DNA from: Chloroflexi bacterium ADurb.Bin180
GTDB taxonomy: Bacteria; Chloroflexota; Anaerolineae; UBA2200
Direction: 5' to 3'
NCBI GenBank assembly: GCA_002070215.1
Contig: MWCV01000004.1
Location: 19,407 to 83,406, forward strand
DNA: 64,000 nucleotides
A program made the translations under genes and the position numbers. The notes beneath the pieces are model-generated. The model was given only the letters and a program-made list of their open reading frames with translations. It was not told where the DNA came from and ran no database searches. Shown here in pieces: positions 26,432 through 61,153 of the stretch. Every line of letters begins with the position of its first letter. Position 1 is the stretch's first letter.

Positions 26432-26821
26432 CTAGAAGGCGACTGCCTTGGAGCTCTCCCACAGTCCGTGAATGTTGCACATCGCGACGGCAAGCACGGT
26501 GCCCGGAGCGTTGACCTTCATCGAGAAGGCGGCCTCGGGGTGCGTGTACACGGGGCCCTGATTGGCGCCCTTGACCGCTTCGCCATGAGCGTTGAACTCG
26601 AAGCGGCCGACGTGGTACACGAACTTGTCTCCGTCGGGCTGGAAGTAGACGTCGATCCAGCTAATGTGGTGTTCGGTGGTGTTCGGGTGGGGGATTTCCT
26701 TGCCGACGGCCACCTTGACCAGGAACATCTTGTCCGCCTCGACCTTATCGGGGCAGTCGATCACGGGGACGTGCTTTTCGGCCTTCCAATCGGCAGTCTG
26801 GATGCGCTCACCAAGTCTCAT
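26432..26821 (-). CDS. 1Fe superoxide reductase (neelaredoxin-type desulfoferrodoxin family)
   Basis: EKHVPVI, PHPNTTEHHISWI and CNIHGLWES correspond to the His4-Cys iron ligand segments. 129 aa with no N-terminal desulforedoxin domain. Confidence 0.85.
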   Translation of the reverse strand: MRLGERIQTADWKAEKHVPVIDCPDKVEADKMFLVKVAVGKEIPHPNTTEHHISWIDVYFQPDGDKFVYHVGRFEFNAHGEAVKGANQGPVYTHPEAAFSMKVNAPGTVLAVAMCNIHGLWESSKAVAF

Positions 26822-26860: not shown

Positions 26861-27022
26861 CTAGTCGACCGGCTCGAACATGTCCTTGCCAACACCGCAC
26901 TCGGGGCATACCCAGTCGGCTGGCAGGTCTTCGAAAGCGGTGCCGGGCTTGATACCGTGCTTCGGGTCTCCCTTGGCGGGGTCGTAGACATAGCCACAAA
27001 CGGTGCACTCGTACTTTTTCAT
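26861..27022 (-). CDS. rubredoxin (53 aa, absent from the ORF track)
   Basis: My own translation gives [53 protein letters not shown] with both CxxCG knuckles. GGAGGAG Shine-Dalgarno lies 7 nt upstream of the ATG. Confidence 0.9.
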
Positions 27023-27060: not shown

Positions 27061-27089
27061 ATTATCACGGTACAGGGTCAAGTTGTCAA
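27061..27089 (-). promoter_or_regulatory. sigma70-type promoter of the rubredoxin-SOR operon
   Basis: On the minus strand: TTGACA (27089-27084), 17 nt spacer, GATAAT (27066-27061). The -35 box lies in the 3' end of the upstream ECF S-component gene. Confidence 0.5.
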
Positions 27090-27890
27090 GGCATCCGAAG
27101 AACTCGGTAGGGCGGCAAACCCGAGGACGTGCTTGAAACGTCGCAGGACGCGGAGCAGCGGTGCGCCGAGGAAGAGGACCAGTCCCGCATTGCCCGCGGC
27201 GCGCCAAAAGTCCCACCACAGGGATGTGGTTGCATAGAAGGCGCCATAGCGACGCAGGCCCTCGATGAATCTCAGCCCTGGCTCCCAGTTCTGTCCCGGA
27301 TTGGCCTGCATGGCCGAGACATAAGGCCAGAACCAGAGATTCATAATGGCGCCGAAGGCGAATCCCCACAGCGTCACCCACGCCGCGAGCATCACCAGTT
27401 CCATTCGGCGCCAACGCCGCAAACTCGGCAGCCATCCGGAGGACAACCCAATCCAGCCGGTGGCCAGCATCTGGTAGGGCAGCCAGGGCCCAACCCCGCC
27501 GCCGATCAGAGCAGAGACCAGCAGCGAAAGCACACCCATCAGGAAGCCAAAGGTGCTGCCATAGACATAGCCACACAGGGCCAGCAGGAAGAAGATGGCC
27601 GAGAAGCCAGCAGGTCCCGGAACGGCCCGCAGAACGGCATTCACTGCGCTGAGCACGCCCAGGACGGCGATGGTGCGAGCGCTCATCTGACGGCTGGTGA
27701 GGTTGGCCACGACGATGACCGTGCAGAGCAGCGTCAGAACGAGCGTCACCAGCGGTGCATCGTCGGCGTGAGCCGCGGCAGTAGGACCGGGCTGGATGCC
27801 AGAGCTGAAGAACGGGTAGGCAAAGGCAGCAATGCCAACCAGCGTGGCCAGAATTAAGACGAGGGCGTTGGCCCAACGCTCAATCCGCAT
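27078..27890 (-). CDS. ECF-transporter substrate-capture (S) component, unusually long (270 aa)
   Basis: All-helical membrane protein, last gene of the ECF T/A/S set. ATG 27890 overlaps the ATPase stop (27880-27882). Confidence 0.6.
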   Translation of the reverse strand: MRIERWANALVLILATLVGIAAFAYPFFSSGIQPGPTAAAHADDAPLVTLVLTLLCTVIVVANLTSRQMSARTIAVLGVLSAVNAVLRAVPGPAGFSAIFFLLALCGYVYGSTFGFLMGVLSLLVSALIGGGVGPWLPYQMLATGWIGLSSGWLPSLRRWRRMELVMLAAWVTLWGFAFGAIMNLWFWPYVSAMQANPGQNWEPGLRFIEGLRRYGAFYATTSLWWDFWRAAGNAGLVLFLGAPLLRVLRRFKHVLGFAALPSSSDALTT

Positions 27891-29529
27891 GGGCATAAGC
27901 CTCGAGTACATCGGACACGGTGAGCAGGCCCGAGTCAAACAGCCTGGCTACCTGAGTAGCGAACGCTGGCGCTTCAGCCATGGCCTCCGCCGGTGGCGCG
28001 TCGACCACAATGCGGCCCTCGCTCATGATGACAATGCGCCCGGCACACTCAGCGGCCAGCTCGGTGTCGTGGGTCACCAGGATGACCGTTCTGCCAGAAG
28101 CGGTTTGTGCTTTGAGAAAGCGAGCAAGGGTCTGTTTCTCGAGTGGATCCAATCCCCTGGTGGGTTCGTCGAGGAGCAGCGTGTCCGGTTCCGCCACCAG
28201 AATGGCCGCCAGAGCCGCTCTCTGGCGCTCGCCAACACTGAGAGAGCGCGGGTAGCGGTCGCCCAGCCGGGATAGGCCAAGCTGGTTCAGCCATTGGTTC
28301 GTATCGGCTGGAGGCAGCCGGTGCGCTTTGCGGGTGAACTCGAGTTCCTCTCTGACCGAGTCGGCAAAGAGCAGGCTGCCCGGGTCCTGCGGGACGTAGC
28401 CCACATGTCGAATCAGCTCATCCAGTTGGGTCCGCGACGTGTCCATGCCGTGCACGAGGACGGAGCCCATCTGGGGGGTGATCAGACCGACCAGATGTTT
28501 GAGTAGAGTGGTCTTGCCCGAACCGTTGCGACCCATCAGCGCGATCAGCTCGCCCTGACGTGCCTGAAAGTCGATGCCCTTGAGCGCGGCAGAGGTCATG
28601 TCTTTGAATGTCCCGTTCGAGTTGTAGCTGTGGTACAGCCCCTGGACCTGGAGGACCACCGGAGCCGGCGAGCCAACGAGGGTCTGGTGGGCCACGTAGG
28701 CTTTGGGCAGGGGACCCAGGCGTGAGCGGAATGGCTCGGCTTCTTCAACGGTAGTTGGAACCGGACGCCAATCGAAAGCCTTTGCCAGTTGGGTCAAAGG
28801 GGGAGAGTAGGGCATTCCCATCAACACCTGTTCTGGCGGACCCAACACTGGCCTGGCGCCCAGGTCAGACAGGTACAGGATACGGTCGGCGTAGGGAACA
28901 ACTCGCTCCAGGCGATGTTCCGAGCATATGACCGTCAGCCCAAGGTCGGCGTTCAGGCACCGAAGGGTTGACAGCACTTCATCGGCGGAGCGCGGATCGA
29001 GCTGCGAGGTGGGCTCATCGAGCACCAGCAGGCGCGGCCTCAGCGTGAGCACCGAGCCGATAGCCACGCGTTGCTTCTCACCTGCCGACAGAGCGCTGAT
29101 GCGGCGGTTTCTGAGGTGCACGATGCCCAACTGCTGCAGTACCTCTTCGACCCGGCCGCGCATCACTGCTGGAGCGATACCCTGGTTTTCCATGCCAAAG
29201 GCAAGCTCATCTTCGACCGTATCCACTACGAATTGCGATTCTGGGTCTTGCTGCACCAGGCCAACCAGTGTGCTCATCTCGTGGGGGCCAGCCGCCACCG
29301 GATCCTTGCCTGCCACTCGTACCTGTCCGGAGAACCGTCCGCCACTAAAGTGGGGTACAAGCCCGTTCAGGGTGCGCAGCAGCGTTGACTTGCCACAGCC
29401 GGAGGGCCCGACCACCAGGAGGAACTCGCCCTCACGAATGTCGATGGTGAGCCGATCCAGCGCGGGGCGCTGGCTGTCCGGGTAGGTGAAAGTAACAGAC
29501 TGCAGCTCGGCGATGGTCCGCTCGGTCAT
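27880..29529 (-). CDS. fused double ECF/ABC ATPase (EcfA1-EcfA2, YkoD-like)
   Basis: Two Walker A sites (GPSGCGKST, GRNGSGKTT), two LSxGxxQR signatures (LSAGEKQRV, LSVGERQRA) and two Walker B sites (LLVLDEPT, LLLDEPT). The ATG overlaps the EcfT stop (ATGA 29526-29529). Confidence 0.9.
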   Translation of the reverse strand: MTERTIAELQSVTFTYPDSQRPALDRLTIDIREGEFLLVVGPSGCGKSTLLRTLNGLVPHFSGGRFSGQVRVAGKDPVAAGPHEMSTLVGLVQQDPESQFVVDTVEDELAFGMENQGIAPAVMRGRVEEVLQQLGIVHLRNRRISALSAGEKQRVAIGSVLTLRPRLLVLDEPTSQLDPRSADEVLSTLRCLNADLGLTVICSEHRLERVVPYADRILYLSDLGARPVLGPPEQVLMGMPYSPPLTQLAKAFDWRPVPTTVEEAEPFRSRLGPLPKAYVAHQTLVGSPAPVVLQVQGLYHSYNSNGTFKDMTSAALKGIDFQARQGELIALMGRNGSGKTTLLKHLVGLITPQMGSVLVHGMDTSRTQLDELIRHVGYVPQDPGSLLFADSVREELEFTRKAHRLPPADTNQWLNQLGLSRLGDRYPRSLSVGERQRAALAAILVAEPDTLLLDEPTRGLDPLEKQTLARFLKAQTASGRTVILVTHDTELAAECAGRIVIMSEGRIVVDAPPAEAMAEAPAFATQVARLFDSGLLTVSDVLEAYAHAD

Positions 29530-30665
29530 GGCAGCCCTTGAGGCACTTGCTCCACGTGGTCGGGAGCAAGTCGGTTCGGCTGTCTGGTATCCCTTTGCCA
29601 CCACAGTATCGGGGCAGCGAGGAGACTGGTAGCCAGGCCTACCCATGGCGAGAACCCCGGCCAGGGATTGGAAGGTGGATAGGGGTAGTAGTACAGCAGT
29701 GATGGCGCGCGCCACTGAATCAGGCCCAGTGCGACCAGCGAGGCCAATGACAGCGCAGCCACGTAGGTGTCACCCGGGCACCATGCTTCAAAGCGGTAGT
29801 GAGAGCGCTGGAAGCCACGCCCCTGCACATAGAGCGCAGCCAGAAGTGCAATTGTGCCGCCAAAGAGCAGAATAGTAGTGACAGTGAGCGCCTGGCTAAC
29901 GATGGCCCGCATCAGGAGGCCGGTCAGCAGCGCAACAAGTCCCACGATGGTCAGGGGCGTGGCCAGAGAGCGGCTCGAGGCAGTCCTGCCGGCCTCTTTC
30001 GACTGCGGCGCGATCCCGCCAAAGCCACGTGCCTCCATCGACTCAGCCAGGGTGAGGGAGCGTTCGAGAGCCGTGGTGATCAAGGGAACGAACAGAGGGA
30101 TCCAATCGCGGAGGCCGCGGAACTGGTGTCCGCGCACCCGCTGAGCTTCGCGAATCTCCTGAAAGCTGGACATGAGTTGGGGGATGAAGGACAGCGCAAT
30201 GGAGACTACCAGGCCGGCCTGGAAGAGGCCCGACGGAAGCCACCGCAAGAGGCGATGCGAGTCCAGTGCCAGGTTGAACGTGGCAAACACCAGCAGCACA
30301 GCGAACAGGCTCGCACCATTGGACAACCCGTACAGCAGTGCCTCCAGTGTAATGGGCCCGCCGATAAGCGGCCAGTTGCGAGGCAGGGTGAAAAGGATCA
30401 CCCGGCCGGCGTGGGCAAAGAGCAGGTTGAAAATGGTGGCGACAGCCCATACCCACAGTCCCAAGCGCAGAAAAGTGCCCCAGCCAGCGGCAGTGTGTCT
30501 GCCGGCGCCGCTGCTTTCGCCGCCCGTGCTGGCCTTGCTGGCAATGGTAAAGACCGTTCCCACGGTGAGGATCAGCAGCACCGTCTGCAGCGGCTGACTG
30601 TTGACCAGTGCCGCAAAGGCCGCGGCACACAGCCATGCCAACCAGGTCAGCGTGTGGTAGGTCAT
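29526..30665 (-). CDS. ECF-transporter transmembrane (T) component, CbiQ/EcfT family, with N-terminal extension
   Basis: TALERSLTLAESMEARGF coupling-helix motif in a multi-TM protein. ATGA overlap with the upstream gene (30662-30665). Confidence 0.8.
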   Translation of the reverse strand: MTYHTLTWLAWLCAAAFAALVNSQPLQTVLLILTVGTVFTIASKASTGGESSGAGRHTAAGWGTFLRLGLWVWAVATIFNLLFAHAGRVILFTLPRNWPLIGGPITLEALLYGLSNGASLFAVLLVFATFNLALDSHRLLRWLPSGLFQAGLVVSIALSFIPQLMSSFQEIREAQRVRGHQFRGLRDWIPLFVPLITTALERSLTLAESMEARGFGGIAPQSKEAGRTASSRSLATPLTIVGLVALLTGLLMRAIVSQALTVTTILLFGGTIALLAALYVQGRGFQRSHYRFEAWCPGDTYVAALSLASLVALGLIQWRAPSLLYYYPYPPSNPWPGFSPWVGLATSLLAAPILWWQRDTRQPNRLAPDHVEQVPQGLP

Positions 30666-31303
30666 CGTGGTCCGCTTGTGGTTCGGCGCCTGGTCAGCCA
30701 GAAGCCACCCAACAGAGCGAGAGCCATACCGGCAAACAGCAGATACTGACCAATGGGCGGCGCATCCACCGTGTCAGTGGATGTTGAGGGTGCCGGTTCG
30801 GGGGTGGAATCGGGGGGACAGACCTCCGCAAAGCTGATTGTGTCCGGAGGCGTTTCGGCATTGCCCCACATCCAGGCCTCAACGGAGCCATCGACGACGC
30901 CATGATCCGCCGAGCCGATGGCCGAGTACATCCAGCGGTTGTCCTTCCAATACCAGTAGCTCCAATAGCTGCACGGGGGTCTCAGGCACTGGCAGAAGCA
31001 CGGTTCTGAGGGGTACTGACATCCGGTCTGCTCGATCCGACACACGGCGCCGCCCCATGTCACTACCTTGAGCCCGGAGCGCGCCAGTAGCTCGAGGCCG
31101 CTGATGCTGGTCTCGGAGAAGCTAATGCAGCGCGTGATCCTGGCTGCTGACGGGTCGACCTGGTCCCCAATGGGTGCAGTCTGGATCACCAGCGCTGCCC
31201 GGGAAGGACGCTGCGCGGAGAGGCTCGGGCCGGAGCCGGTGACAAGCAGCACCATCCCCGTCGCGAGTATCAACGCTATTGACAGGAAGCGGTAACGCAA
31301 CAT
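30662..31303 (-). CDS. DUF4430 (transcobalamin-like beta-domain) protein with signal peptide, Cys-rich insert and C-terminal TM anchor
   Basis: N-terminal hydrophobic signal. ...ISGLELLARSGLKV...WYWKDNRWMYSAIGSADHGVVDGSVEAWMWGN resembles the DUF4430 core. Six-Cys insert CRIEQTGCQYPSEPCFCQCLRPPC. C-terminal LLFAGMALALLGGFWLTRRR anchor. Confidence 0.6.
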   Translation of the reverse strand: MLRYRFLSIALILATGMVLLVTGSGPSLSAQRPSRAALVIQTAPIGDQVDPSAARITRCISFSETSISGLELLARSGLKVVTWGGAVCRIEQTGCQYPSEPCFCQCLRPPCSYWSYWYWKDNRWMYSAIGSADHGVVDGSVEAWMWGNAETPPDTISFAEVCPPDSTPEPAPSTSTDTVDAPPIGQYLLFAGMALALLGGFWLTRRRTTSGPR

Positions 31304-31358
31304 CGCAACACTCCGGCGCGGGGCCAGCGGCTGCGGTCGCTGGCCCCGGCGCAGTCAG

Positions 31359-32399
31359 CTACTTGGAACCCAGCGGCAGGAACTTGCCCTCAAGCGCTGG
31401 AATGGCCTGCACTGTGGCCATAACCGGGCTGCCAATTCCAGGCTGGAACTCGACCTTACCGTCGGCTGTCTGCAGCTTGAGCAGAGCAGTGAGCGGGTCG
31501 CCATCAGGCTTTTTCCACTTGCCGGCAGAGGGGTCTTCTCCCACAGCGTACAGGGCCATGAGCACATTAGCAGTGGAGTTGGCATTTGTGTCAGTGCCCC
31601 ACTCGGACGGTTTGATCGCTGGAAAGCCGCCATCGTCGTTCTGTTGGGTCTCAAAGAAGGCCAGAGCCTTCTGGATGGACGCTGCGTTCTTGGCTTCGCC
31701 GCCCGCTACGAGGGCCTGCAGCACGATGGCCACCGTATCGTTGTCTGGCCCAAAGGCAGAATCCCAGGCGCCAGAGTCCAGTTGGTAGCTCTCGAGAACG
31801 GCCACCGCCTCGGCCGGCACAGGTTCTCCCGCTGCCTTGAGCGCCAGGATGGCCCAGGCCTGACCGACCGCGCCTGCGTCGTACGTTCCCTTGGTCTGCG
31901 CCAAGGATTGGAGCACAGCCAGCCAATCCTTGCCGCCAAAGGTCCTGGGGTCCTGCTTGGCGGCGGCGATGGTCACGATCAGCTTGGCGGTGGTGGCGGC
32001 ATCCGTGGCGTACTCACCGGCGGACGTGGAGAGGTACTCGGTCAGAGAAGGCTGGCCTGCCTCCTTGCGCCACGATGAGGCGTCGCCGCCGCTGGCAACG
32101 ATGGCGAGGACTGCATCGCAGGTGACGCCGGCAGGGTGGCCAAAGCCGGTGTTCAGACTGCCATCGTCCTGTTGCTGTGAGCGCAGCCACTCCACTGCTT
32201 TGAGTGCTGGTGTCGCCGGCACCTCAGTAGGCGTGGGCGCCGGGGTGGGCGGAATCGCCGTCGGTGGCACCGCTGTTGGCGGTACCTTCGTGGGAGGCAC
32301 TGCGGTAGGGGTTGGCTTGGGTGCGCAGCCGGCGACCAGAGCGATCACCAGCAGAGCCAGGAGAAGCGGTGCTTGTTTGCGAATGAAGGTTCCGGACAT
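31359..32399 (-). CDS. lipoprotein with prenyltransferase/terpene-cyclase-type alpha/alpha-toroid repeats
   Basis: Signal peptide plus lipobox LVAGC and a Pro/Thr linker. Repeats WLRSQQQDDGSL, SYQLDSGAW, ETQQNDDGGF and LKLQTADGKV. First gene downstream of the cobalamin riboswitch. Confidence 0.6.
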   Translation of the reverse strand: MSGTFIRKQAPLLLALLVIALVAGCAPKPTPTAVPPTKVPPTAVPPTAIPPTPAPTPTEVPATPALKAVEWLRSQQQDDGSLNTGFGHPAGVTCDAVLAIVASGGDASSWRKEAGQPSLTEYLSTSAGEYATDAATTAKLIVTIAAAKQDPRTFGGKDWLAVLQSLAQTKGTYDAGAVGQAWAILALKAAGEPVPAEAVAVLESYQLDSGAWDSAFGPDNDTVAIVLQALVAGGEAKNAASIQKALAFFETQQNDDGGFPAIKPSEWGTDTNANSTANVLMALYAVGEDPSAGKWKKPDGDPLTALLKLQTADGKVEFQPGIGSPVMATVQAIPALEGKFLPLGSK

Positions 32400-32424: not shown

Positions 32425-32460
32425 GAAAATAAAAGACCCCGTGCCGGTTCGGCCGGGGTC
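32425..32460 (-). terminator. intrinsic terminator acting as the expression platform of the cobalamin riboswitch
   Basis: Minus-strand GACCCCGGCCGAACCGGCACGGGGTC followed by TTTTATTTTC. It lies between the aptamer and the ATG at 32399. Confidence 0.75.
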
Positions 32461-32663: not shown

Positions 32664-32691
32664 AGTATAGATACCGTGAGGAAATTGTCAA
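32664..32691 (-). promoter_or_regulatory. sigma70-type promoter of the riboswitch-controlled operon
   Basis: Minus strand: perfect TTGACA (32691-32686), 16 nt spacer, TATACT (32669-32664). Confidence 0.6.
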
Positions 32692-32768: not shown

Positions 32769-33374
32769 ATGGACGAGAAAACGGTGCGTCTGGTTCGGTC
32801 GGCTCTGCAGTGGTTCGTCGAGCTGACGGTGATCATCATCATTCTCACTCTCTGGAATACGCCCTCTTCTGGAGCGCTCAACCTGGCTCGCGCGGCTGGT
32901 TTGATTGGCTATATCGCCCTCTTCCTGGCGATTCTGTCCTTCGAGTTCGTGACGGAGATGACCCAGCTCTACGGAAGACCGTACCTGGCGGTCCATCACT
33001 GGCTAGCCTTCGCCGGCCTGGGACTGGCGCTGCTGCACGCCCTGGCGATGGCCGGGATGGAGAGGGACAGTTCGGTTCTTGTCCCGCGTTTAGGTTCGCT
33101 GCGGACCTTCTTGACCTTTGGTGGGCCGCCGGCGCTGTACCTGCTTCTCATCGCAGCAGCGGCGGGGTTTCTGCGCGGACGTATCGGTTCATCCTGGAAG
33201 TACATCCACTGGCTGAACTATGCAGCCTTCTTTTTGATCCTGGCCCACTCCTGGCTGCGGGGAACCAACGTGCCCCAGGGGATACTGAGCGTTCTGTGGC
33301 CGGCGATGGCGCTCATTGTGCTCGTTGTGTTTGTGCACAAGCACCTGTTGCGTAAGGGGCGGCCAGCAAGCTGA
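32769..33374 (+). CDS. stand-alone ferric-reductase-like (FRD/MsrQ-type) transmembrane domain protein, putative di-haem cytochrome b
   Basis: Six hydrophobic helices. Two His pairs spaced 13-14 residues apart in separate helices: VHHWLAFAGLGLALLHAL and IHWLNYAAFFLILAHSW. Confidence 0.5.
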   Translation: MDEKTVRLVRSALQWFVELTVIIIILTLWNTPSSGALNLARAAGLIGYIALFLAILSFEFVTEMTQLYGRPYLAVHHWLAFAGLGLALLHALAMAGMERDSSVLVPRLGSLRTFLTFGGPPALYLLLIAAAAGFLRGRIGSSWKYIHWLNYAAFFLILAHSWLRGTNVPQGILSVLWPAMALIVLVVFVHKHLLRKGRPAS

Positions 33375-33490: not shown

Positions 33491-34708
33491 TCAGGCCGCG
33501 TCGCGGATGGCGCGGGCAAAAGCGGCTGCCAGGTCCTCCGCTTTGGACAGATCCTCAGATGAGGGCGCACCACGGAACTCGAGCGACTCGGACAGCTCCC
33601 ACTTGAGCTCCTCAGCAACGGTTTCGAACTCCTTCTGGGCCCCTCCGGACCAACCGAAAGAGCCGAAATGGAAGGCTTTCCGGCCGGTCATTCTCTTGCG
33701 CGCGATGCTGTCGAGAACCTGAGCCATAGGTGGAAACATCTTGACCTCATAGGTTGGAGCACCGACGATGATCCCCTTGTTCTTGAATACGGAAGCAAGA
33801 ATGTAAGAGTGGTCCGCCAGTGGTACCTCGAAGACTTCCATCGGCACTCCTTCGCGGGCCACGCCGCGCATCACGGCATCGGTCACGGCCTTGGTATTGC
33901 CATACATGCTGCTCCACAGCAGGGTGATGCCCTTTTCGCACTGACCGCCAGAGTAACCGGCGAACCTGAGGTAGCGCTGGACGACCTCCCCCGGATCAGA
34001 TCGCCACACCAGCCCGTGCGACGGAGCGATCACCGACACGGGGATGCCCTTGAGCTTGTCGATGGCGCGCTGCACGGGTTTGGCAAAGTTGGCGACGATG
34101 TTGGCATAGTAGCGCAGCATTTCGCGGTAATAGAAATCCTGGTCTTCGGGCAGGACCTCATCGTCGTAGAGAATGCCCTTGAGGGCGCCAAATCCGCCAA
34201 AGGCATCGCACGAGAACAGAACCTGGCTGTTTGGTTCGTAGGTCACCATCGTGTCCGGCCAGTGAACGAACGGGATATGGGCAAACACCAGCTTTTTGCC
34301 TGCGCCCAGGTCCAGTTCCTCGCCGTCGGCCACGGCACGTGCTCCTTCGGTGACCCCGCAGAGGGCCTGCGCTAGCTCAATCCCCTTGGGCGAGGCCAGG
34401 ATCTCTGCCCTGGGGGCAAGCCGGCGAAAGTTGCGCAAGAACTCGGAGTGATCAGGTTCCAGGTGGTTGGCCACAATATAGTCGACGTCCGCAGGCGCTA
34501 TGCCGGCTGTCTCTAGCTGCTGCAGCAAGTTACTGGAGCTGCCGCTCCACTCCCTCACCAGGTCGATGATGGCGATCTTGTCACCTTTGACGATGTACGA
34601 GTTCAGCGACACGCCGTCGGGGATGGGCCATAGCCCCTCGAACAGGTCGTGGGAACGGACGTTGACACCGACCCACCAGATGCCGGGTTTCATTTCGATT
34701 GCGGGCAT
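33491..34708 (-). CDS. fprA: A-type flavodiiron protein (FprA; O2/NO reductase)
   Basis: Metallo-beta-lactamase-like di-iron motif NHLEPDHS plus a C-terminal flavodoxin-like domain (LLWSSMYGNTKAV). About 405 aa. Confidence 0.85.
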   Translation of the reverse strand: MPAIEMKPGIWWVGVNVRSHDLFEGLWPIPDGVSLNSYIVKGDKIAIIDLVREWSGSSSNLLQQLETAGIAPADVDYIVANHLEPDHSEFLRNFRRLAPRAEILASPKGIELAQALCGVTEGARAVADGEELDLGAGKKLVFAHIPFVHWPDTMVTYEPNSQVLFSCDAFGGFGALKGILYDDEVLPEDQDFYYREMLRYYANIVANFAKPVQRAIDKLKGIPVSVIAPSHGLVWRSDPGEVVQRYLRFAGYSGGQCEKGITLLWSSMYGNTKAVTDAVMRGVAREGVPMEVFEVPLADHSYILASVFKNKGIIVGAPTYEVKMFPPMAQVLDSIARKRMTGRKAFHFGSFGWSGGAQKEFETVAEELKWELSESLEFRGAPSSEDLSKAEDLAAAFARAIRDAA

Positions 34709-34767
34709 GAGAGTTGTGCTCCTTTCGCGATAGATGCGGGGTCCGGGGCGGTCGAGCAATACGGCCG

Positions 34768-34802: not shown

Positions 34803-36080
34803 TCACGGTTGTGTGCCTTCATCTCCGCCAAGGCGCTCGGAGAGTAGGATGCGTCTCTCCCAGACCTTGAAGAAAGGCAGCCAGACAATGGCCGGGATTA
34901 CGAGCCAGGTCGCGATGGAGAGGGCCAGGGCCCTGACGTCGTAGCCGGTGGAGAGCCAGGCGGACAACGGCGCGGGCAGTGCCCGGGGCAAGTAGATGTA
35001 AGCCGGCGTAACCCAGCCCAGGGCGTGAGCCACATAAGCAGCGGTGGCATTCAGGCCGGTTACTACCACGAACGGCACAGCGAGCAGCGGGTTGAAAATG
35101 ATCGGCGTGTCAAAGATGAGGCTCTCGTTGCGGTTGAAGAACCCCGCGCGCAGGTTCTCACGCCCTGCCTGGCGAAGGCGTTGCGATCTCGAGCGCGAGA
35201 GGTAGATGGCCAATGGCAGCGTGGTGCCTGATCCGCCGGCGACGACGTAGACGCGGAAGAGGTCCGAATAGATCCACCGCGGAGCCTGGCCGGACCAGCG
35301 CGCGAGGCCGTTCGCCACTGCGTTGCCGGTCAGTAGCGGTTGCAGTGCCGACCCCAGGATCAGGTTGCCATCGATGCCCAGCACCCAGAGCAGGGAGTGG
35401 GCTACCTCCGTCAGAACACAGGCCGGGCCAGAGGAGAGCAGGGAGACGAGATGGTCCCCCAACCCTAGGAGCGTGTTGAAGGCGGTCAGACTGGGCAAGA
35501 GGCGTGCCAGACAGGCCAGGCCGATAATTGCCAACGAGAGTAGGGCTCTGGCTACGACCGGGTGCCATTCGCGAGGGGTTGACTTTGTCTCAGGCGAAAC
35601 CTGGGCATCGGCGACAGACAGCGCGCAAGCTTCAACGGTGAGCAAGGCTACCACCAGGGCCAACACCAGGTTCTCCGGGCCGAAACGAGCCGCCAGTGCC
35701 GGCCGCAGTCGCTCGATGGTGAGTAGGCCAAACACCAGGACGGCAAGCCCGGTGGGCCAGGCGGGCTGGATGGTCTTCCTTTGCGCCAGGCGGAGAGAGA
35801 CGGCGCAGACGACGTAGAGGGAGAAGCAACCAAAGGTGAGCTTGAACAGCGCCTGGAGCCAGCGGGCAATCCAGGCGTGCTCTGTGACCATCCTCTGCCA
35901 GGGCAAAAGGGGCAACTCGCGAAGCAACAACGCCAGGCTGCCCAGGATGAGCACCGGGGTGAGAGAGGTCAGTCCGTCACGCATTGACTCCAGGTGAGGC
36001 TCGTCCAGAAGGGGAGCTGCTCGCTCCATCAAGTCGGAGAGTAGTGCGGGCCAATCAAGAGAGGAAGGTTGCCGGGTCAT
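34803..36080 (-). CDS. orphan PTS EIIC type-3 (cellobiose/chitobiose ChbC-like) permease-fold protein
   Basis: HLESMRDGLTSLTPVLILGSLALLL, VLGIDGNLILGS (GIHG-like), VVAGGSGTTLPLAIYL and FFNRNESLIFDTPIIFNPLLAVPFVV (NEPxxFGxPxxxNP-like). No EIIA or EIIB gene is nearby. Confidence 0.55.
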   Translation of the reverse strand: MTRQPSSLDWPALLSDLMERAAPLLDEPHLESMRDGLTSLTPVLILGSLALLLRELPLLPWQRMVTEHAWIARWLQALFKLTFGCFSLYVVCAVSLRLAQRKTIQPAWPTGLAVLVFGLLTIERLRPALAARFGPENLVLALVVALLTVEACALSVADAQVSPETKSTPREWHPVVARALLSLAIIGLACLARLLPSLTAFNTLLGLGDHLVSLLSSGPACVLTEVAHSLLWVLGIDGNLILGSALQPLLTGNAVANGLARWSGQAPRWIYSDLFRVYVVAGGSGTTLPLAIYLSRSRSQRLRQAGRENLRAGFFNRNESLIFDTPIIFNPLLAVPFVVVTGLNATAAYVAHALGWVTPAYIYLPRALPAPLSAWLSTGYDVRALALSIATWLVIPAIVWLPFFKVWERRILLSERLGGDEGTQP

Positions 36081-36174: not shown

Positions 36175-36546
36175 CTACGGCTCCACCTCGACCGTGTCTC
36201 CCACGCTCAGGCCGGTGCGCTTGATTTCTCCGGCCGGCAGCTCGACGACGTAGAGCGCACTGAACACCGGGCGGTCAATCCGGTTGGGCTTGAGGTTTTC
36301 AGTGACAGCAACGATGCGCCCAGACCGGCTGACATAGATGACGTCGATGGGGAAGGCCATGCCAAACATGTGGATCCAGCGGCAGGGTCGAATCATCAGC
36401 CCTTGACCGGGACGCAACGGAGCATGCCCAAGGAGGCCCCTGTTGCGCGACTCTCTGGTCTCGGCGAGTTCGAGCTCGCCCAGCACAACTCGCGTCGGCT
36501 CGGGCGGCCGGCCCGGCTCGTTACGGCGTCGCGAGAGCAGTCTCAT
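36175..36546 (-). CDS. DUF192-family protein
   Basis: RNRGLLGHAPLRPGQGLMIRPCRWIHMFGMAFPIDVIYV...YVVELPAG matches the DUF192 core. The start overlaps the cpaF stop (36543-36546). Confidence 0.7.
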   Translation of the reverse strand: MRLLSRRRNEPGRPPEPTRVVLGELELAETRESRNRGLLGHAPLRPGQGLMIRPCRWIHMFGMAFPIDVIYVSRSGRIVAVTENLKPNRIDRPVFSALYVVELPAGEIKRTGLSVGDTVEVEP

Positions 36547-37883
36547 TTGCGGAGCAGTGCCTCCAGGCCGACGCCAAAGATGTTGCCGGGCAGCTTGATT
36601 CCGGCGTGCTCGATCTTTTCGGCAAACTTGGGTCTGATGCCGGTGGGATTCAGCCGACCGAGGATCTTGCCGTCCTTTTGGCCGGTTTGTTCAAAGCGGA
36701 GGATGTCCTGCATCACGACCACTTCGCCTTCCATCCCCTGCACCTCGGCTACCTGAACGACGCGGCGGGAGCCATCGCTCATACGGTCGAGGTGAATGAT
36801 GCAGTCGATGGCCGAAGAGATCTGCTCACGGATGGCCCGCAGCGGCAGGTCCATACCGGACATCAGGACCATGGTCTCCAAACGGCGCAGCGCGTCGCGG
36901 GCGGTGTTGGCGTGGAGAGTGCTCAGGCTGCCATCGTGGCCGGTGTTCATAGCCTGCAGCATGTCGAGGGCCTCGCCGCCGCGGGCTTCGCCGACGACGA
37001 TGCGGTCGGGCCTCATACGGAGCGCGTTGATTACCAGGTCGCGGATCGTGATCTGCCCTTTGCCTTCGATGTTGGGTGGCCGTGCTTCAAGAGTGACCAC
37101 GTGTTCCTGCTTGAGCTGTAGTTCTGCCGCGTCTTCGATGGTGATGATGCGCTCCCGAGACGGAATGTACTGGGAGAGAACATTGAGCAGGGTGGTCTTG
37201 CCCGAACCAGTTCCGCCCGAGATGATCATGTTCAGCCGCGCTTCAACGGCGGCTCTAGTGAGCTGGATGAATTCGGGAGTGATGGTGCCAAAGGTCTGCA
37301 AGTCGTTGTCGGTGAAGGGAATGTGCGAGAACTTGCGGATGGTAACTACAGGTCCGACCAGCGAGATCGGTGGAATGGTTACGTTTACGCGAGAGCCATC
37401 CGGGAGGCGGGCATCAACCATCGGGGAAGACTCGTCGACGCGCCGACCCAGGGGAGCGACGATGCGGTCGATGATTCTCAGCAGGTGTTCCTCGTTCTCG
37501 AACACACAACTGGTCTTTTCAATCTTGCCGGCGCGTTCGATGTAAATCTTGCGCGGCCCATTGATCATGATCTCGGTGATGGTATTGTCCTGCAGGAGTG
37601 GTTCGATAGGACCAAACCCGAGGATTTCCGCCAGCACCTGCTCCAGGAGCAGCATCCGCTCCGTGCGGCTCATGGCCGCATTCTCTTCCTCGACGACTTT
37701 GGGGAACATCGCCTCAATGGTGCGGCGGACAATGGTTGGGTTGCTGATGTCGAGCTGCGGATCCAGCCGTGCCAGCACTTTTTCGCGGATGCGCGCACTC
37801 AGCCTGGCATCGTCTCGGGCTCCGGTACTGTCTGGTCGCGTGTGGCCGATGGCTTGCCCCGGGGGGCGGCTCGCAAGGGTCAT
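36543..37883 (-). CDS. cpaF: Tad/Flp pilus secretion ATPase CpaF/TadA
   Basis: ITEIMINGP, Walker A GGTGSGKTT, IITIEDAAEL, and RMRPDRIVVGEARGGEA. ATG 37883 overlaps the upstream stop (ATGA). Confidence 0.9.
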   Translation of the reverse strand: MTLASRPPGQAIGHTRPDSTGARDDARLSARIREKVLARLDPQLDISNPTIVRRTIEAMFPKVVEEENAAMSRTERMLLLEQVLAEILGFGPIEPLLQDNTITEIMINGPRKIYIERAGKIEKTSCVFENEEHLLRIIDRIVAPLGRRVDESSPMVDARLPDGSRVNVTIPPISLVGPVVTIRKFSHIPFTDNDLQTFGTITPEFIQLTRAAVEARLNMIISGGTGSGKTTLLNVLSQYIPSRERIITIEDAAELQLKQEHVVTLEARPPNIEGKGQITIRDLVINALRMRPDRIVVGEARGGEALDMLQAMNTGHDGSLSTLHANTARDALRRLETMVLMSGMDLPLRAIREQISSAIDCIIHLDRMSDGSRRVVQVAEVQGMEGEVVVMQDILRFEQTGQKDGKILGRLNPTGIRPKFAEKIEHAGIKLPGNIFGVGLEALLRK

Positions 37884-39535
37884 GGCACGACGCTCCAGTT
37901 CTCCAGGCCGCAATTGCACTTGCCAGCCAGGATAGTGACCGCCTGGTCATAGTGGCTGAGTGCGGACAGGTAATCACTTTGTGCTACCTTAAAGTCGCCC
38001 TGGCGGATGCTGTCCTCATACAGTTCCACGGGGATGGCCGTGGCGCTTCGGGTGATGATGTCCAATCCTGTCTTGATGAGCCCTGTGCCGGCGGCCAGAT
38101 TGCCTGCCTTGGCGGCGGCTGTTCCCTGCTTGACAAAGGCTGCAAACAGCAGTCGCGCCGTATCTTGGCCACCATGAACACCAACAAGGGCCGCCGAGCG
38201 GTAATGGGCCTCGGCTGTTGCCCAGTCCCCAACACTCGCGGCGTTGTCGCCATCGCGCATCAACTGGACGAACTGGCGCTGGAACTCGTTCTCTGGCTCG
38301 ACTGTTCCACCCGGGGTGATCTGCGTCGGGTGGGGCACGGGTTCAGATGGCTCCGGAGCCGGCGCAGGCGTGACGGCGGTAGGCAGCGGCGCAATGGAGG
38401 TTGGCAGCGGAGCAACCGGCGTCGGCGGGGGCGCAGGCGTGGACTCGGTCCCGTGCAGAAGGATGGCGGCACTTCCGCCGGCATAGTCGGGCTGCTTGTC
38501 CACCACATACTGCAGCAGCAGCACTGCCGCGGGTCTATTACCCAGGACAATCAGTCTCTGGGCCTCCAGGTACTTGTCAGCCAGAGATACCTGCAGCGAC
38601 ACCACCTCGTTCTGTGGCTGGAGCGAGAGAGCCTTCTGGAACAACGCCTTGGCTTCAACCAGGGCCTCCAGGCTGCCCTTGCTGCCCTCCACCAGCTCGA
38701 TGGCTTGCTTGTAGTAACCGTCGAACAGGTGCGCGCTGACCGTTGCCTTCTCATAATCGACGCTCAGGTCGATCAAGTCCTCGTAGGCGCGGCACGCCTC
38801 AGCCCACTTGCCTGTCTTGTAGGCTGCCTCAGCCCGCGCAAAGGCTGCACTCAGCGTCGCCTGCTGCTGGACATAGAGCAGTTTGACCTGCGCGTCGCCA
38901 TACCGCGGATCAACCGCAATCACTGATCGGAGAATCGTCTCAGCCCTGGCCCAGTCCTTAGCGATCACCGCTGCTTCGGCGCTGGCATAGTCGGCGTCGA
39001 GGGCCTTTCTTTGCTCGATCTGCTCGAGGGCCTGCGTCCAGGCCGTGTTGCCAGGATCGGCGGCGAGCAGTTCGTTAAAGGCCTCCTCAGCGTTGGCATA
39101 GTCGCGGTTGGCAAGGAGTTGGTAAGCACGTGTCACTTGCTGGGCCTTTTGTCGCTGCTCCTGTGTCTTGGTTTCGTCGGGACGAATCCACGTGTTGTAG
39201 GCGTAGCGGCCAGCGTAAGCAGCGCCCACCAGCAGTGCCAGGACGGCGAGCGCGAGGGCGATGTATTTCAGGCGCCCACCAAAGCGCACTCGCTTGGGTT
39301 TGGGCCGCGCCTCTTCCAGGGAGGCCTTGACGCGGGTTTCGTCCAGGAAGGCGCGGGCGGCAGCATGGTCAGGGCGCAGGCGCAGTACCTCTTCAAAGCT
39401 GGCCGCAGCCTGATCCCAGCGGCCATTCTGAAAATCGAGCAGACCTTGCTGGTACACCGTGTCGGCCTGCTGCTCCTGTGCTGTCGTATCGGGAACACTG
39501 TCAATGATTGGTTGTTCTTCCATGGCGGACCTCAT
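37880..39535 (-). CDS. single-pass membrane TPR-repeat protein of the Tad locus
   Basis: TPR-like helical repeats on both sides of a TM segment (YIALALAVLALLVGAAYA) and a Pro-rich linker. An alternative start is ATG 39523. Confidence 0.6.
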   Translation of the reverse strand: MRSAMEEQPIIDSVPDTTAQEQQADTVYQQGLLDFQNGRWDQAAASFEEVLRLRPDHAAARAFLDETRVKASLEEARPKPKRVRFGGRLKYIALALAVLALLVGAAYAGRYAYNTWIRPDETKTQEQRQKAQQVTRAYQLLANRDYANAEEAFNELLAADPGNTAWTQALEQIEQRKALDADYASAEAAVIAKDWARAETILRSVIAVDPRYGDAQVKLLYVQQQATLSAAFARAEAAYKTGKWAEACRAYEDLIDLSVDYEKATVSAHLFDGYYKQAIELVEGSKGSLEALVEAKALFQKALSLQPQNEVVSLQVSLADKYLEAQRLIVLGNRPAAVLLLQYVVDKQPDYAGGSAAILLHGTESTPAPPPTPVAPLPTSIAPLPTAVTPAPAPEPSEPVPHPTQITPGGTVEPENEFQRQFVQLMRDGDNAASVGDWATAEAHYRSAALVGVHGGQDTARLLFAAFVKQGTAAAKAGNLAAGTGLIKTGLDIITRSATAIPVELYEDSIRQGDFKVAQSDYLSALSHYDQAVTILAGKCNCGLENWSVVP

Positions 39536-39551
39536 TCTGTGCCGAGTCTGG

Positions 39552-40493
39552 CTACCTCAAGATGTCGGCAAAGCTACGAACCACGATGGGAATGGCCGGC
39601 CCGATGGAGACGGCCAAAAGTGCCGGAAAGATCATAAAGATGAGCGGAAACAGCATCTTGAGCGGTACCTTGCGGGCCTCTTCCTCTGCTCTCTGCCAGC
39701 GTTTGACGCGCATCTGCTCCGACTGGTTGTGAAGGACGCTGGCAATGCTCAGCCCGAACTGCTCGGCCTGCATCAGCACCGCGGTAAAGCTGCCCACTTC
39801 CTCGACATTGGTGCGCCAGGCCAGGTTCTGCAGGGCCTCGCGCCTGGTCAGCCCGATGCGCACCTCGGCCACGACTTTGCCGAACTCCATGGCGATGGCG
39901 TTCTTCCACTTCTCGCTGATTTTGAGCATGCCGGCGTCGAGGCCGGATCCGGCATCAACGCAGATGGTGAGCATGTCCAGGGCATCGGGCAGGCTGCGCC
40001 TGATTTCCCCCTTGCGTTTGCGGACGCGCGAGCCCAGCCAAAAGTCAGGCACAAGAAAGGCGATCCCGGCGCCAATGAGCGGGAAGGCGATCAAGCGGAG
40101 TGCGGCACCGCCGGCGATGGTCGCGAAATAGAATGTAGCCACTCCCACGACAAGCCCCAGCAGAAGCTTGACGCCGAGGAAATCCAACACGCCGAGGTTG
40201 AAGGGGTGCCCGGCCCTGACCAGGTCCGTTCGAATTCGCTCGATGTTGCGGGATGGAGCCAGACGGCCCGCGGCCTGCATCTGGTTGCGCAACCACGGCT
40301 TGAGCACGCGCTCGGCAAAGCTCTCTTCGAGTTCGGCGTCTTCGGTGGGATGAGGGCTTGCAGTGAGGCGTTCCAGTTGCTGTTTGGCAGTCTCGCTGTG
40401 GGTCAGCCGCCTCAAGCCAACCAGCAGCGAAACAACGCTCAGCATCGCCATAGTCGCAATGGACAGACCCAACGTCGTGGTGCTCATTGACAC
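39552..40493 (-). CDS. tadC: Flp pilus assembly platform protein TadC (T2SSF family)
   Basis: T2SSF-type layout: cytoplasmic helical domain (LPDALDMLTICVDAGSGLDAGM...) flanked by TM helices. Confidence 0.8.
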   Translation of the reverse strand: MSMSTTTLGLSIATMAMLSVVSLLVGLRRLTHSETAKQQLERLTASPHPTEDAELEESFAERVLKPWLRNQMQAAGRLAPSRNIERIRTDLVRAGHPFNLGVLDFLGVKLLLGLVVGVATFYFATIAGGAALRLIAFPLIGAGIAFLVPDFWLGSRVRKRKGEIRRSLPDALDMLTICVDAGSGLDAGMLKISEKWKNAIAMEFGKVVAEVRIGLTRREALQNLAWRTNVEEVGSFTAVLMQAEQFGLSIASVLHNQSEQMRVKRWQRAEEEARKVPLKMLFPLIFMIFPALLAVSIGPAIPIVVRSFADILR

Positions 40494-40500
40494 GCAGCTC

Positions 40501-41499
40501 CTAGAACTCGACCTTGCTTAGCTTGCCCATGACAAAGTAGCCGGCTATCTCCAGGATCACGGCGGTGATCGGAATCAGAAGCGTCCAGCCGGGCGTGAAA
40601 AGAGCGCTAAGGTAGTCGGGACTGATGATATGAATCATGACCGCAACAGCTGCCGGCAGAATGGTCAGGATGGTTCTTTGCAGGTTCTGTTGCGCCGTGA
40701 GCACGCGCAGCTGGCCCTTGAGCCGAATGCGTTCACGGATGGTGCCGCTGATCGTCTCCAGGATGATGGCCAGGTTGCCCCCGACTTCGTACTGGATGGC
40801 AATGGCGGTCACGACCAGGTCGAGGTCGTCGCTCTTGATGCGGCGGACCAGGTTCTGCAGCGCCTGAGTGGCCGACATGCCCAAACCGATCTCTCTCACC
40901 ACGCGCGCAAACTCCTCGCTGGCAGGCGGAGGCATCTGCTTGGCCACTGTGTCCATAGCGATAGTGATGCCATAGCCGCTGCGCAGCGAGCCGACCAGAA
41001 GCGTTAGAACGTCAGGCAACTGGTCCTGGAAAAGGAGGAGCCGTCTGGCTTCCCGATTGTGGAGATAGATGCGCGGCAGAAAGAGACCCAGAGCGCCGCC
41101 GAGCATGGCGAAAAGCAGTTGCCGCGTGAAGAGAAAGATCAAGAGGAATAGGCCAGCAGTGGTCGCCAGTTGGATAAGAACGAACTCGGGTACCGTGAGT
41201 GGCAGGTTGGCCCGGGCCAGGTCAGTGGCTATCGAGGCGGCAAAGCTGCGCCCCGAGACGAGCCGGGCCACGCCTTGCACCAGCGGTTCAAACCAACGGC
41301 CCTTGCGCTTGTCATCGGTAATCGCAAGAGGCTGTGCGTCCTGCAGGAGGTCCTCGAGGCGTGAGGCAACGGTGTCCTGTCGCTCGATGAGCCGGCCAAG
41401 GCCGACGAACATCAGGAGGACCGCCGCAACTATGCCAAGTGCGCTGAGGGCTACAAGCACACCCACCGTCAACCTCCCCAGACGGGCAGACGTGTCCAC
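40501..41499 (-). CDS. tadB: Flp pilus assembly platform protein TadB (T2SSF family)
   Basis: QLPDVLTLLVGSLRSGYGITIAMDTV... T2SSF domain. An alternative GTG start at 41466 lies 6 nt after GGGAGG. Confidence 0.8.
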   Translation of the reverse strand: MDTSARLGRLTVGVLVALSALGIVAAVLLMFVGLGRLIERQDTVASRLEDLLQDAQPLAITDDKRKGRWFEPLVQGVARLVSGRSFAASIATDLARANLPLTVPEFVLIQLATTAGLFLLIFLFTRQLLFAMLGGALGLFLPRIYLHNREARRLLLFQDQLPDVLTLLVGSLRSGYGITIAMDTVAKQMPPPASEEFARVVREIGLGMSATQALQNLVRRIKSDDLDLVVTAIAIQYEVGGNLAIILETISGTIRERIRLKGQLRVLTAQQNLQRTILTILPAAVAVMIHIISPDYLSALFTPGWTLLIPITAVILEIAGYFVMGKLSKVEF

Positions 41500-42143
41500 C
41501 CGGCGAGCTGCTGCCCAAAGAGCATCGTGCTCAGGCAGCCGGCCACCAGGTAAGGCGCATAGGGAATGTACTGCTTGGGTCCGCGGATGCGCGTGACGAG
41601 CAGCACTGCAGCAGCCAGACCGCCAAACAGGATTCCCAGCAGTAACGCCTGAAATACTGCCGGAAAGCCATTGATCGTCCCGATCAGAATCGCCAGCTTG
41701 ACATCACCGGGTCCGAGTGCGCCGCGCCCCGCGGCAGCGAGCAGTATGAACAGAGCCCCGGCCGAGAGAGCGCCAGTCAATGCCGAACGCGGGTCGGGCA
41801 GCACACGGAGAATGCTGAACAACAGAGACAGCACTATGCCGGTGGCTACCAGTACGTTGGGGACCAGGCGGTGTTCGAGGTCGATTGCGCCGATCAGTAG
41901 CAGCAGCTCGCTCAGCATGAACCGGGCCCAGAAAGTGGGGTCCCACGAGTGAACCCGGTACAGGTACACGGCAAAGGCAACTGAACCCGCGAGCAACAAC
42001 AGGGTTCGCCAGAACGGACGGGGGCGAGAAGAGACCACCGGGATACCGTCGCCATCTTCGTCGGCAATGCGGGCCGGCAGCCAGTCCGCGACCCAGTTGG
42101 TGAGCCAGGCACCGGCGAGGCCCAGGAGCAGCGCAGCCCACAT
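41469..42143 (-). CDS. A24-family prepilin peptidase (TadV/CpaA-like)
   Basis: Polytopic protein with GAIDLEHRLVPN and GPGDVKLAILIG aspartyl-protease motifs. ATG 42143 starts 4 nt after the cpaE stop. Confidence 0.8.
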   Translation of the reverse strand: MWAALLLGLAGAWLTNWVADWLPARIADEDGDGIPVVSSRPRPFWRTLLLLAGSVAFAVYLYRVHSWDPTFWARFMLSELLLLIGAIDLEHRLVPNVLVATGIVLSLLFSILRVLPDPRSALTGALSAGALFILLAAAGRGALGPGDVKLAILIGTINGFPAVFQALLLGILFGGLAAAVLLVTRIRGPKQYIPYAPYLVAGCLSTMLFGQQLAGWTRLPVWGG

Positions 42144-42147
42144 GTGG

Positions 42148-60892: not shown

Positions 60893-60964
60893 AGCGGAAG
60901 ACGGGATTCGAACCCGCGACCCTCTCCTTGGCAAGGAGATGCTCTACCGCTGAGCCACTTCCGC
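60893..60964 (-). tRNA. tRNA-Gly (anticodon GCC), CCA not encoded
   Basis: Hand-folded: acceptor GCGGAAG/CTTCCGC, D arm GCTC-AGCGGTA-GAGC, anticodon arm TCTCC-TTGCCAA-GGAGA, and T arm GCGGG-TTCGAAT-CCCGT. Confidence 0.9.
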
Positions 60965-61072: not shown

Positions 61073-61153
61073 TGGGGAAGGAGAGACTCGAACTCTCACG
61101 GATTTCTCCACATGATCCTAAATCATGCTCGTCTACCATTCCGACACTTCCCC
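61073..61153 (-). tRNA. tRNA-Leu (anticodon TAG) with long variable arm, CCA not encoded
   Basis: Hand-folded: acceptor GGGGAAG/CTTCCCC, anticodon arm CATGA-TTTAGGA-TCATG, variable arm GGA-GAAA-TCC, and T arm GAGAG-TTCGAGT-CTCTC. Confidence 0.9.

Follow-up and report, generated by a model that had tools for sequence, protein, structure and literature searches.

We analysed a window of 64,000 nucleotides from Chloroflexi bacterium ADurb.Bin180 (Chloroflexota, Anaerolineae; contig MWCV01000004.1, positions 19,407 to 83,406) and found five minus-strand genes behind a cobalamin riboswitch. They encode, in this order, a lipoprotein with an alpha/alpha-toroid (gene A), a secreted beta-grasp protein rich in cysteines (gene B), and the T component, the fused A/A' ATPase and the S component of an energy-coupling factor (ECF) transporter. 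This is probably a B12-repressed corrinoid-uptake operon of a monoderm member of the Anaerolineae, in which proteins A and B would clamp a corrinoid in the manner of transcobalamin (TC) and hand it to the ECF S component. The reading is well supported by context and fold, and unproven.

The riboswitch aptamer (RF00174; 32511..32653, minus strand) was recognized by Rfam over the full length of the model, at 49.1 bits (E 3.2e-9; gathering score 31.5). This agrees with an initial annotation of this DNA, which had placed a cobalamin riboswitch ahead of the operon. Just upstream of the aptamer, a sigma-70-like promoter, TTGACA-16-TATACT (32664..32691, minus strand), was predicted by its consensus match alone (11 of 12 positions). 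The expression platform was an intrinsic terminator (~32426..32460, minus strand), with the arms GACCCCG and CGGGGUC around a 12-nt loop, followed by UUUUAUUUU. The terminator hairpin appeared in both the minimum free energy and the centroid fold of the leader RNA. Together, riboswitch and terminator imply B12-dependent transcription termination, that is, a predicted OFF switch, with the OFF logic taken from the known behaviour of this riboswitch class.

The stop of gene B and the start of the ECF-T gene share an ATGA (30665-30662), the coupling to the ECF genes that the initial annotation had pointed out. A second ATGA overlap joins ECF-T and A/A' (29529-29526), and the A/A' and S genes overlap by 11–17 nt. 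These overlaps indicate that the last four genes of the operon are translationally coupled. The sole junction without an overlap lies between genes A and B, the two halves being, as had been described, separate genes, with a spacer of 55 nt. Within the spacer we read from the sequence a perfect 10-bp GC-rich hairpin, GGGGCCAGCG/CGCTGGCCCC, with an 8-nt loop and without a U-run (31320..31347, minus strand). It may act in mRNA stability, for the upstream segment, or as an element setting the A:B stoichiometry.

Gene A (31359..32399, minus strand; 346 aa) encodes a lipoprotein related to the SCO2321 family, with the lipobox LVAGC (Cys25), a Pro/Thr stalk of ~40 residues and an alpha/alpha-toroid ectodomain. 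The lipobox, the Pro/Thr linker and the four QxxDG-type motifs quoted by the initial annotation were all present. The AlphaFold model was a 12-helix alpha/alpha toroid, in a single toroid domain, with a predicted local distance difference test (pLDDT) value of 90.8. By sequence, gene A matched Pfam SQHop_cyclase_C (3e-8). It also matched NCBIfam NF053823 (SCO2321 family membrane protein) with 74.9 bits (E 5.6e-21). This match was confined to residues 172-312 and lay below the equivalog cut-off of 300 bits, making gene A a relative and not an equivalog. The lipobox Cys was kept in almost all close homologues. In the distant ones, an ordinary signal peptide combined with a C-terminal anchor took its place, pointing toward surface tethering as the conserved property.

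In a Foldseek search, the best matches of gene A were class II terpene cyclases (E ~1e-6). TC (2v3n, E 7e-4) and intrinsic factor (IF; 3kq4, E 1.7e-3) followed behind them, at ranks 31 and 47. The toroid fold of the alpha half was thus as proposed by the initial annotation, and TC as its specifically closest relative was not, the fold being generic terpenoid-cyclase-like. Gene A did not match Pfam Cobalamin_bind (PF01122) even at E<=10; seven of 36 relatives did (best 2.3e-6). Searches of PDB with the single sequence and with a profile retrieved only terpene cyclases, prenyltransferases and thioester-containing (TED) domains of alpha-2-macroglobulins. Gene A was therefore tied to TC only through the fold search and the PF01122 matches of some relatives. 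We propose it as an analogue of the TC alpha half.

Gene B (30662..31303, minus strand; 213 aa) carries a cleavable Sec signal peptide of the signal peptidase I type (cleaved after ..SLSA, before Q), a beta-grasp ectodomain (~31-165) with a disulfide-rich insert, a Ser/Thr/Pro spacer, and a C-terminal transmembrane (TM) helix with an RRR basic tail. Six Cys are found in residues 88-111 and, with C59 and C162, eight are conserved. Secretion, the six-Cys insert and the C-terminal TM anchor had all been recognized by the initial annotation. Its label "DUF4430-type" had to be replaced, because gene B and 25 relatives all failed to match DUF4430 (PF14478), even at E<=10. The family is PF28005 (SCO2322), with precomputed matches for a 99%-identical database protein (P0001) and 22 further relatives. 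Against NCBIfam NF040672 (SCO2322 family protein), gene B scored 24 bits (E 3.4e-5), below the 85-bit cut-off, which again indicates a relative and not an equivalog. An exhaustive search with the gene B family profile gave 4186 clusters of 50% identity at E<=1e-3.

The structural model of gene B had a pLDDT of 80. The core blocks scored 84-96, and values were lower in the leader and linker, in a clade-specific loop (41-50) and in the middle of the Cys loop. In Foldseek against PDB, ranks 1-14 were all TC, haptocorrin (HC) or IF (probability 0.93-1.00, E 4e-3 to 5e-2), and the next matches were generic ubiquitin-like beta-grasps with E>0.2. The TM-score, normalised to the isolated TC beta domain (5np4), was 0.61. 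The secondary-structure order was beta1, beta2, helix, hairpin, Cys loop, beta3-5. The hairpin that follows the helix (E80-83/E86-90) is the signature of the TC-like clade of soluble-ligand-binding beta-grasp (SLBB) domains (PMC1796856). By sequence, neither phmmer with gene B nor its family profile retrieved a TC chain from PDB. The kinship with the TC beta domain claimed by the initial annotation was thus found at the fold level, and not at the sequence level.

Among 183 aligned beta domains, 156 kept all eight Cys. Losses came in pairs, C106 with C111 in 11 domains, and C59 with C162 in seven. Together with the even count, the Sec export and the extracytoplasmic location, this paired loss points to about four structural disulfides, as predicted from the alignment, and not to a metal or Fe-S site. 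We considered such a site in the Cys loop and thought it unlikely, given the paired loss and the Sec-type signal peptide. In the model, the Cys loop sits between the TC-type hairpin and beta3; the face of TC that matches this hairpin-beta3 loop contacts B12 (PMC1796856). Lying by analogy at the predicted ligand face, the Cys loop may be directly involved in ligand binding. A Cys of BtuM serves as thiolate ligand of cobalt. A bolder version, part of the more doubtful general reading given below, would have the Cys loop of gene B act likewise, supplying a thiolate cobalt ligand, so that the corrinoid would be bound base-off or decyanated on the outside of the cell.

The ECF genes follow. The T component (29526..30665, minus strand) belongs to the CbiQ family (PF02361, 8.7e-11) and matched EcfT structures (2e-9). 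The fused A/A' ATPase (27880..29529, minus strand) gave TIGR04520 at 1e-105 (353 bits, above the cut-off of 315) and TIGR04521 at 5e-98 (327.7 bits, just under the cut-off of 330). Its listed open reading frame (ORF), from GTG 29715, would be 611 aa long and overlap ECF-T by 190 nt. The TIGR04520 (ECF_ATPase_1) match begins only at residue 70 of this ORF and an ATGA overlap with the T stop is available, so the true start is probably ATG 29529, giving a protein of 549 aa, with GTG 29715 too far upstream. The S component (27078..27896, minus strand) matched PF12822 (2.1e-12), and its start, ATG 27896 or 27890, overlaps the A/A' stop. A CbiQ-family T component, two ECF-type ATPase domains and a PF12822 S component, all encoded together, give the pattern of a dedicated, group I-like ECF module. 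CbrT is the only proven B12 S component (PMC5997447). For the S component of the window, the riboswitch and the neighbouring genes are our sole grounds for inferring a specificity for cobalamin.

The 99%-identical P0001 comes from an Anaerolineae metagenome-assembled genome, and the relatives come from Chloroflexota. Scanning a genome collection with an alignment of 13 closer gene B sequences, we found 16 Chloroflexota loci with a gene B relative. We counted a locus as riboswitch-linked when Rfam found a cobalamin (RF00174) or adenosylcobalamin (RF01482) aptamer upstream and on the same strand. This was so in 13 of the 16 loci, and the remaining three were cut off upstream, leaving 13 of 13 informative loci. 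A same-strand cobalamin riboswitch was found in three further loci, L025 (50.6 bits), L026 and L027, and a sub-threshold match (29 bits) in L024. The linkage to cobalamin riboswitches in other genomes, on which the idea of the initial annotation depended, was therefore present.

The recurrent gene order in the relatives was toroid, beta, ECF T/AA'/S, with S-T-A as a variant, and the adjacency of toroid and beta genes was near-universal. Distant SCO2321/SCO2322-like pairs also adjoined ECF genes, including those in L024 and L025. Two Anaerolineae loci, L007 (3278-7316) and L015 (3674-7618), had a single riboswitch followed by two or three toroid paralogues in tandem and two beta paralogues; in L007 there were three toroid and two beta genes. 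Such sets recall the several BtuG/BtuB sets found in Bacteroides and might, by analogy, reflect specialisation for different corrinoids. In L006 and L011 the beta gene followed the riboswitch directly, with no toroid gene between.

B12 genes were found in the vicinity as well. With a riboswitch ahead, the beta genes of L008 (7111-7662) and L011 (2170-2733) were directly followed by a PduO-type ATP:cob(I)alamin adenosyltransferase and not by ECF genes. The beta ORF of L008 extends to 395 aa, which is long, and no Pfam match was obtained in the C-terminal part. Distant toroid genes in L017 and L018 adjoined CobS and CobU, or a SCO2322 gene, a CobC-like gene and CobS, at loci where no riboswitch was found. 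In L027 a MeaB gene adjoined. In distant loci, two small proteins were located between the toroid gene or the riboswitch and the SCO2322-type gene, one of 226 aa with no Pfam match in L018 (2593-3273) and one of 141 aa with no precomputed Pfam match in L027 (1875-2300). They may be extra parts of the module.

In some relatives the two folds were part of one protein. P0150 and P0290 are single-chain beta-beta-toroid proteins, 36% and 39% identical to genes A and B. The first was found on three contigs, and the second lies behind a riboswitch and next to MeaB. A different joining was seen in L026 (4328-6055), where P0151 (575 aa) combines a SCO2322-type beta domain, including its TM anchor, with a full ECF-T (CbiQ). 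As it occurs on a single contig, P0151 counts as weak evidence; the fusion may be real, or a frameshift at the usual ATGA overlap may have produced it.

From these data we propose the following mechanism. At low cellular cobalamin the riboswitch would permit read-through of the terminator, and the five genes would be expressed. The N-terminal lipid anchor and Pro/Thr stalk of protein A would tether it to the outside of the cytoplasmic membrane, and the C-terminal TM helix and Ser/Thr/Pro spacer would do so for protein B. Protein A would contribute the face of its alpha/alpha-toroid, and protein B a TC-type beta-grasp stabilised by about four disulfides. As a heterodimer, they would clamp a corrinoid (cobalamin, other cobamides or cobinamide) between them, as the alpha and beta domains of TC do. 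The scarce ligand would be concentrated at the membrane and then passed to the dedicated S component, which the T and A/A' module would energise for import.

Several observations weigh against this proposal. By the classical definition, ECF transporters do without extracytoplasmic binding proteins. By both structure and profile, gene A is nearer to class II terpene cyclases than to TC. Gene B has no sequence-level link to DUF4430 or to the TC beta domain, and its Foldseek E-values are modest, none of them reaching 1e-3. Sequence comparison of the S component with solved S components, CbrT among them, gave no match. By the Rfam criterion, the distant toroid/SCO2322 loci L018 and L019 had no riboswitch. 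Finally, the only experimentally studied related split pair with an ECF transporter, that of Lactobacillus sakei, was assigned to heme (bioRxiv 10.1101/864751).

That last assignment suggests scavenging of heme or another tetrapyrrole as the function here too, as proposed for Lsa1839/Lsa1840 and their ECF transporter. We consider this very unlikely, as cobalamin riboswitches regulate the operon of the window and at least 16 related loci, the neighbouring genes are B12-specific, and heme binding by the L. sakei pair rested on docking (bioRxiv 10.1101/864751). Capture of cobalt ions for B12 synthesis is a further candidate, with the Cys-loop thiolates of gene B as a metal site feeding a CbiQ/CbiO-type importer. 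Cobalamin riboswitches also control cobalt importers (PMC3766115), the Pfam family matched by the T component is named "CbiQ, cobalt transport protein", and the eight Cys of gene B are conserved. However, CbiQ is the generic ECF-T family, and the S component belongs to the vitamin-type S family PF12822 and is not CbiM/CbiN. The paired Cys loss over the 183 domains bears the mark of disulfides and not of a metal site; the signal peptide is Sec-type, with an extracytoplasmic domain behind it. In addition, the B12 genes found near the relatives are salvage and nucleotide-loop genes (PduO, CobS, CobU, CobC), not genes of corrin-ring synthesis, and the two folds are those of a corrinoid carrier. 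Cobalt capture is thus improbable.

The folds of genes A and B could also be read apart. Squalene-hopene cyclase and drimenyl diphosphate synthase were the best sequence and structure matches of gene A, which might then be an extracytoplasmic terpenoid or envelope protein, either a cyclase-like enzyme or a lipid binder, sharing with TC only the fold. The catalytic DxDD motif is absent from its 346-aa sequence, and its single toroid domain is placed outside the membrane by the lipobox and stalk, away from isoprenoid diphosphate substrates; we therefore rejected gene A as a class II terpene cyclase enzyme. As the gene is also tightly linked to B12 riboswitches and B12 genes, a terpenoid or envelope role is hardly credible in either form. 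A closer alternative keeps the corrinoid import and dispenses with the clamp. Each protein would bind the ligand alone, or B would be an accessory docked to ECF T/S that funnels or gates the substrate, and A would act separately, for example by retaining corrinoid in the wall zone. The beta-to-ECF-T protein P0151 fits this view, as do the beta genes without an intervening toroid in L006 and L011, the unequal paralogue numbers of L007 and the tandem beta-beta domains of the fusion proteins. But P0151 is the one-contig case with a possible frameshift, and both the beta-beta-toroid fusions on independent contigs and the near-universal toroid-beta adjacency argue for physical cooperation of the two folds. 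Import without a clamp is thus unlikely, though not far-fetched, and we favour joint capture of a corrinoid by A and B.

The concept of a two-part B12 scavenger has been put forward before (PMC1796856, from 2007; bioRxiv 10.1101/864751, from 2019). Burroughs, Balaji, Iyer and Aravind described secreted or surface-anchored bacterial TC-like beta-grasp proteins, fused to or beside alpha/alpha toroids, in operons with a CbiO-like ATPase and a CbiQ-like membrane protein. They predicted B12 scavenging, and a bacterial origin of animal transcobalamin (PMC1796856). Our proposal is essentially the same in concept. Their set was built around what later became DUF4430, mainly from Firmicutes and archaea, whereas the gene B family is not detectably DUF4430. 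Their text does not mention riboswitches (0 occurrences), to which the present operon is linked. In L. sakei, Verplaetse et al. reported the beta and alpha proteins Lsa1839 and Lsa1840 with the ECF components S, A/A' and T (Lsa1836-1838) (bioRxiv 10.1101/864751). These are likewise two secreted proteins, TC beta and alpha by HHpred, proposed as the extracellular scavenging front end of an ECF transporter. They differ from the pair described here in the assignment to heme, where binding by the pair was supported by docking only, and in a beta protein that is DUF4430/TC-beta-like at the sequence-profile level. The L. sakei system was not reported as riboswitch-controlled.

New is the recognition of the SCO2321 and SCO2322 (PF28005) families, of unknown function, as the TC-like pair of Chloroflexota and related lineages, linked to riboswitches and B12 genes. 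The families (NF053823, NF040672, PF28005) carry no functional annotation, and L024 holds the same gene pair with ECF genes. In the literature searched we found nothing relevant on SCO2321/SCO2322. Nor did it contain a biochemical test of a bacterial toroid/beta pair with corrinoids, the prediction papers of 2007 and 2019 being the only ones found. The initial annotation had likewise been aware of no such characterisation.

The animal carriers TC, IF and HC (PF01122 alpha plus PF14478 beta) have the same two folds, including a beta-grasp with a hairpin insert, and both systems are extracellular and B12-related. TC is one soluble alpha-linker-beta chain; here there are two membrane-tethered gene products, neither of which matches PF01122 or PF14478 by sequence. 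Gene B differs further by its disulfide-rich insert, and the bacterial fusion proteins have the order beta-beta-alpha. TC delivers to an endocytic receptor, whereas the delivery proposed here would be to an ECF importer. The fold of Bacteroides BtuG, a beta-propeller, is unrelated to the toroid/beta pair. As a riboswitch-controlled, lipid-anchored protein for high-affinity B12 capture that feeds a transporter, BtuG is a functional analogue, but it belongs to a diderm, where it sits on the outer membrane and delivers to the TonB-dependent BtuB (PMC6143338). ECF-CbrT of Lactobacillus delbrueckii, which imports cobalamin and cobinamide, shares the architecture of T, A/A' and S (PMC5997447). It has no extracytoplasmic partner. 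The operon described here also differs from it in having fused ATPases and a dedicated (group I-like) module.

If the proposal is true, a conserved, riboswitch-controlled tethered TC-like pair before an ECF module would be an exception to the textbook rule of no extracytoplasmic binding protein. It would also explain how monoderm environmental bacteria such as Chloroflexota scavenge corrinoids at picomolar levels. Chloroflexota are abundant in anaerobic digesters, sediments and the subsurface, and are often B12-dependent. A testable function would be gained for SCO2321 and SCO2322/PF28005, both large families of the "function unknown" kind (>4000 clusters of 50% identity for SCO2322/PF28005), and a bacterial context for the origin of the animal B12 carriers. 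The value is tempered by the fact that the idea was proposed in 2007 and 2019, so that the gap is one of biochemistry and not of hypothesis. Going further, and tentatively, since we find it possible and somewhat doubtful, the ECF importers of Chloroflexota and of the distant SCO2321/SCO2322-type lineages might use such a two-protein tethered extracytoplasmic receptor, as the first ECF system dependent on a substrate-binding protein. The pair, or a beta-beta-toroid fusion, might then be the bacterial stock from which the animal TC family arose by gene fusion.

Genes for oxygen detoxification, of a kind typical for anaerobes, lie on both sides of the operon. Downstream of it we found a rubredoxin (26861-27022, minus strand), with its own promoter-like site TTGACA-17-GATAAT (27089-27061), and a desulfoferrodoxin/superoxide reductase (26432-26821, minus strand). 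On the other side there was a flavodiiron-type protein, with an ODP metallo-beta-lactamase and a flavodoxin domain (33491-34759, minus strand). A ferric-reductase-like membrane protein (32769-33374, plus strand) is divergent from the riboswitch promoter. A stand-alone membrane protein similar to enzyme IIC (EIIC) of the phosphotransferase system (PTS) was encoded at 34803-36080 (minus strand; PF02378, 9e-21), with no other PTS components near it in the region examined. A Tad/type IV pilus-like cluster occupies 36543-43368 (minus strand), and in it we recognized a T2SSE-family ATPase (36543-37919), a tetratricopeptide repeat protein (37880-39535), a T2SSF-family membrane protein (40501-41499), and a response-regulator receiver combined with a ParA/CpaE-like ATPase (42148-43368), all on the minus strand. 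Two neighbouring tRNA genes were found further along, at 60893-60964 and 61073-61153 on the minus strand (Rfam tRNA, 72.5 and 56.6 bits).

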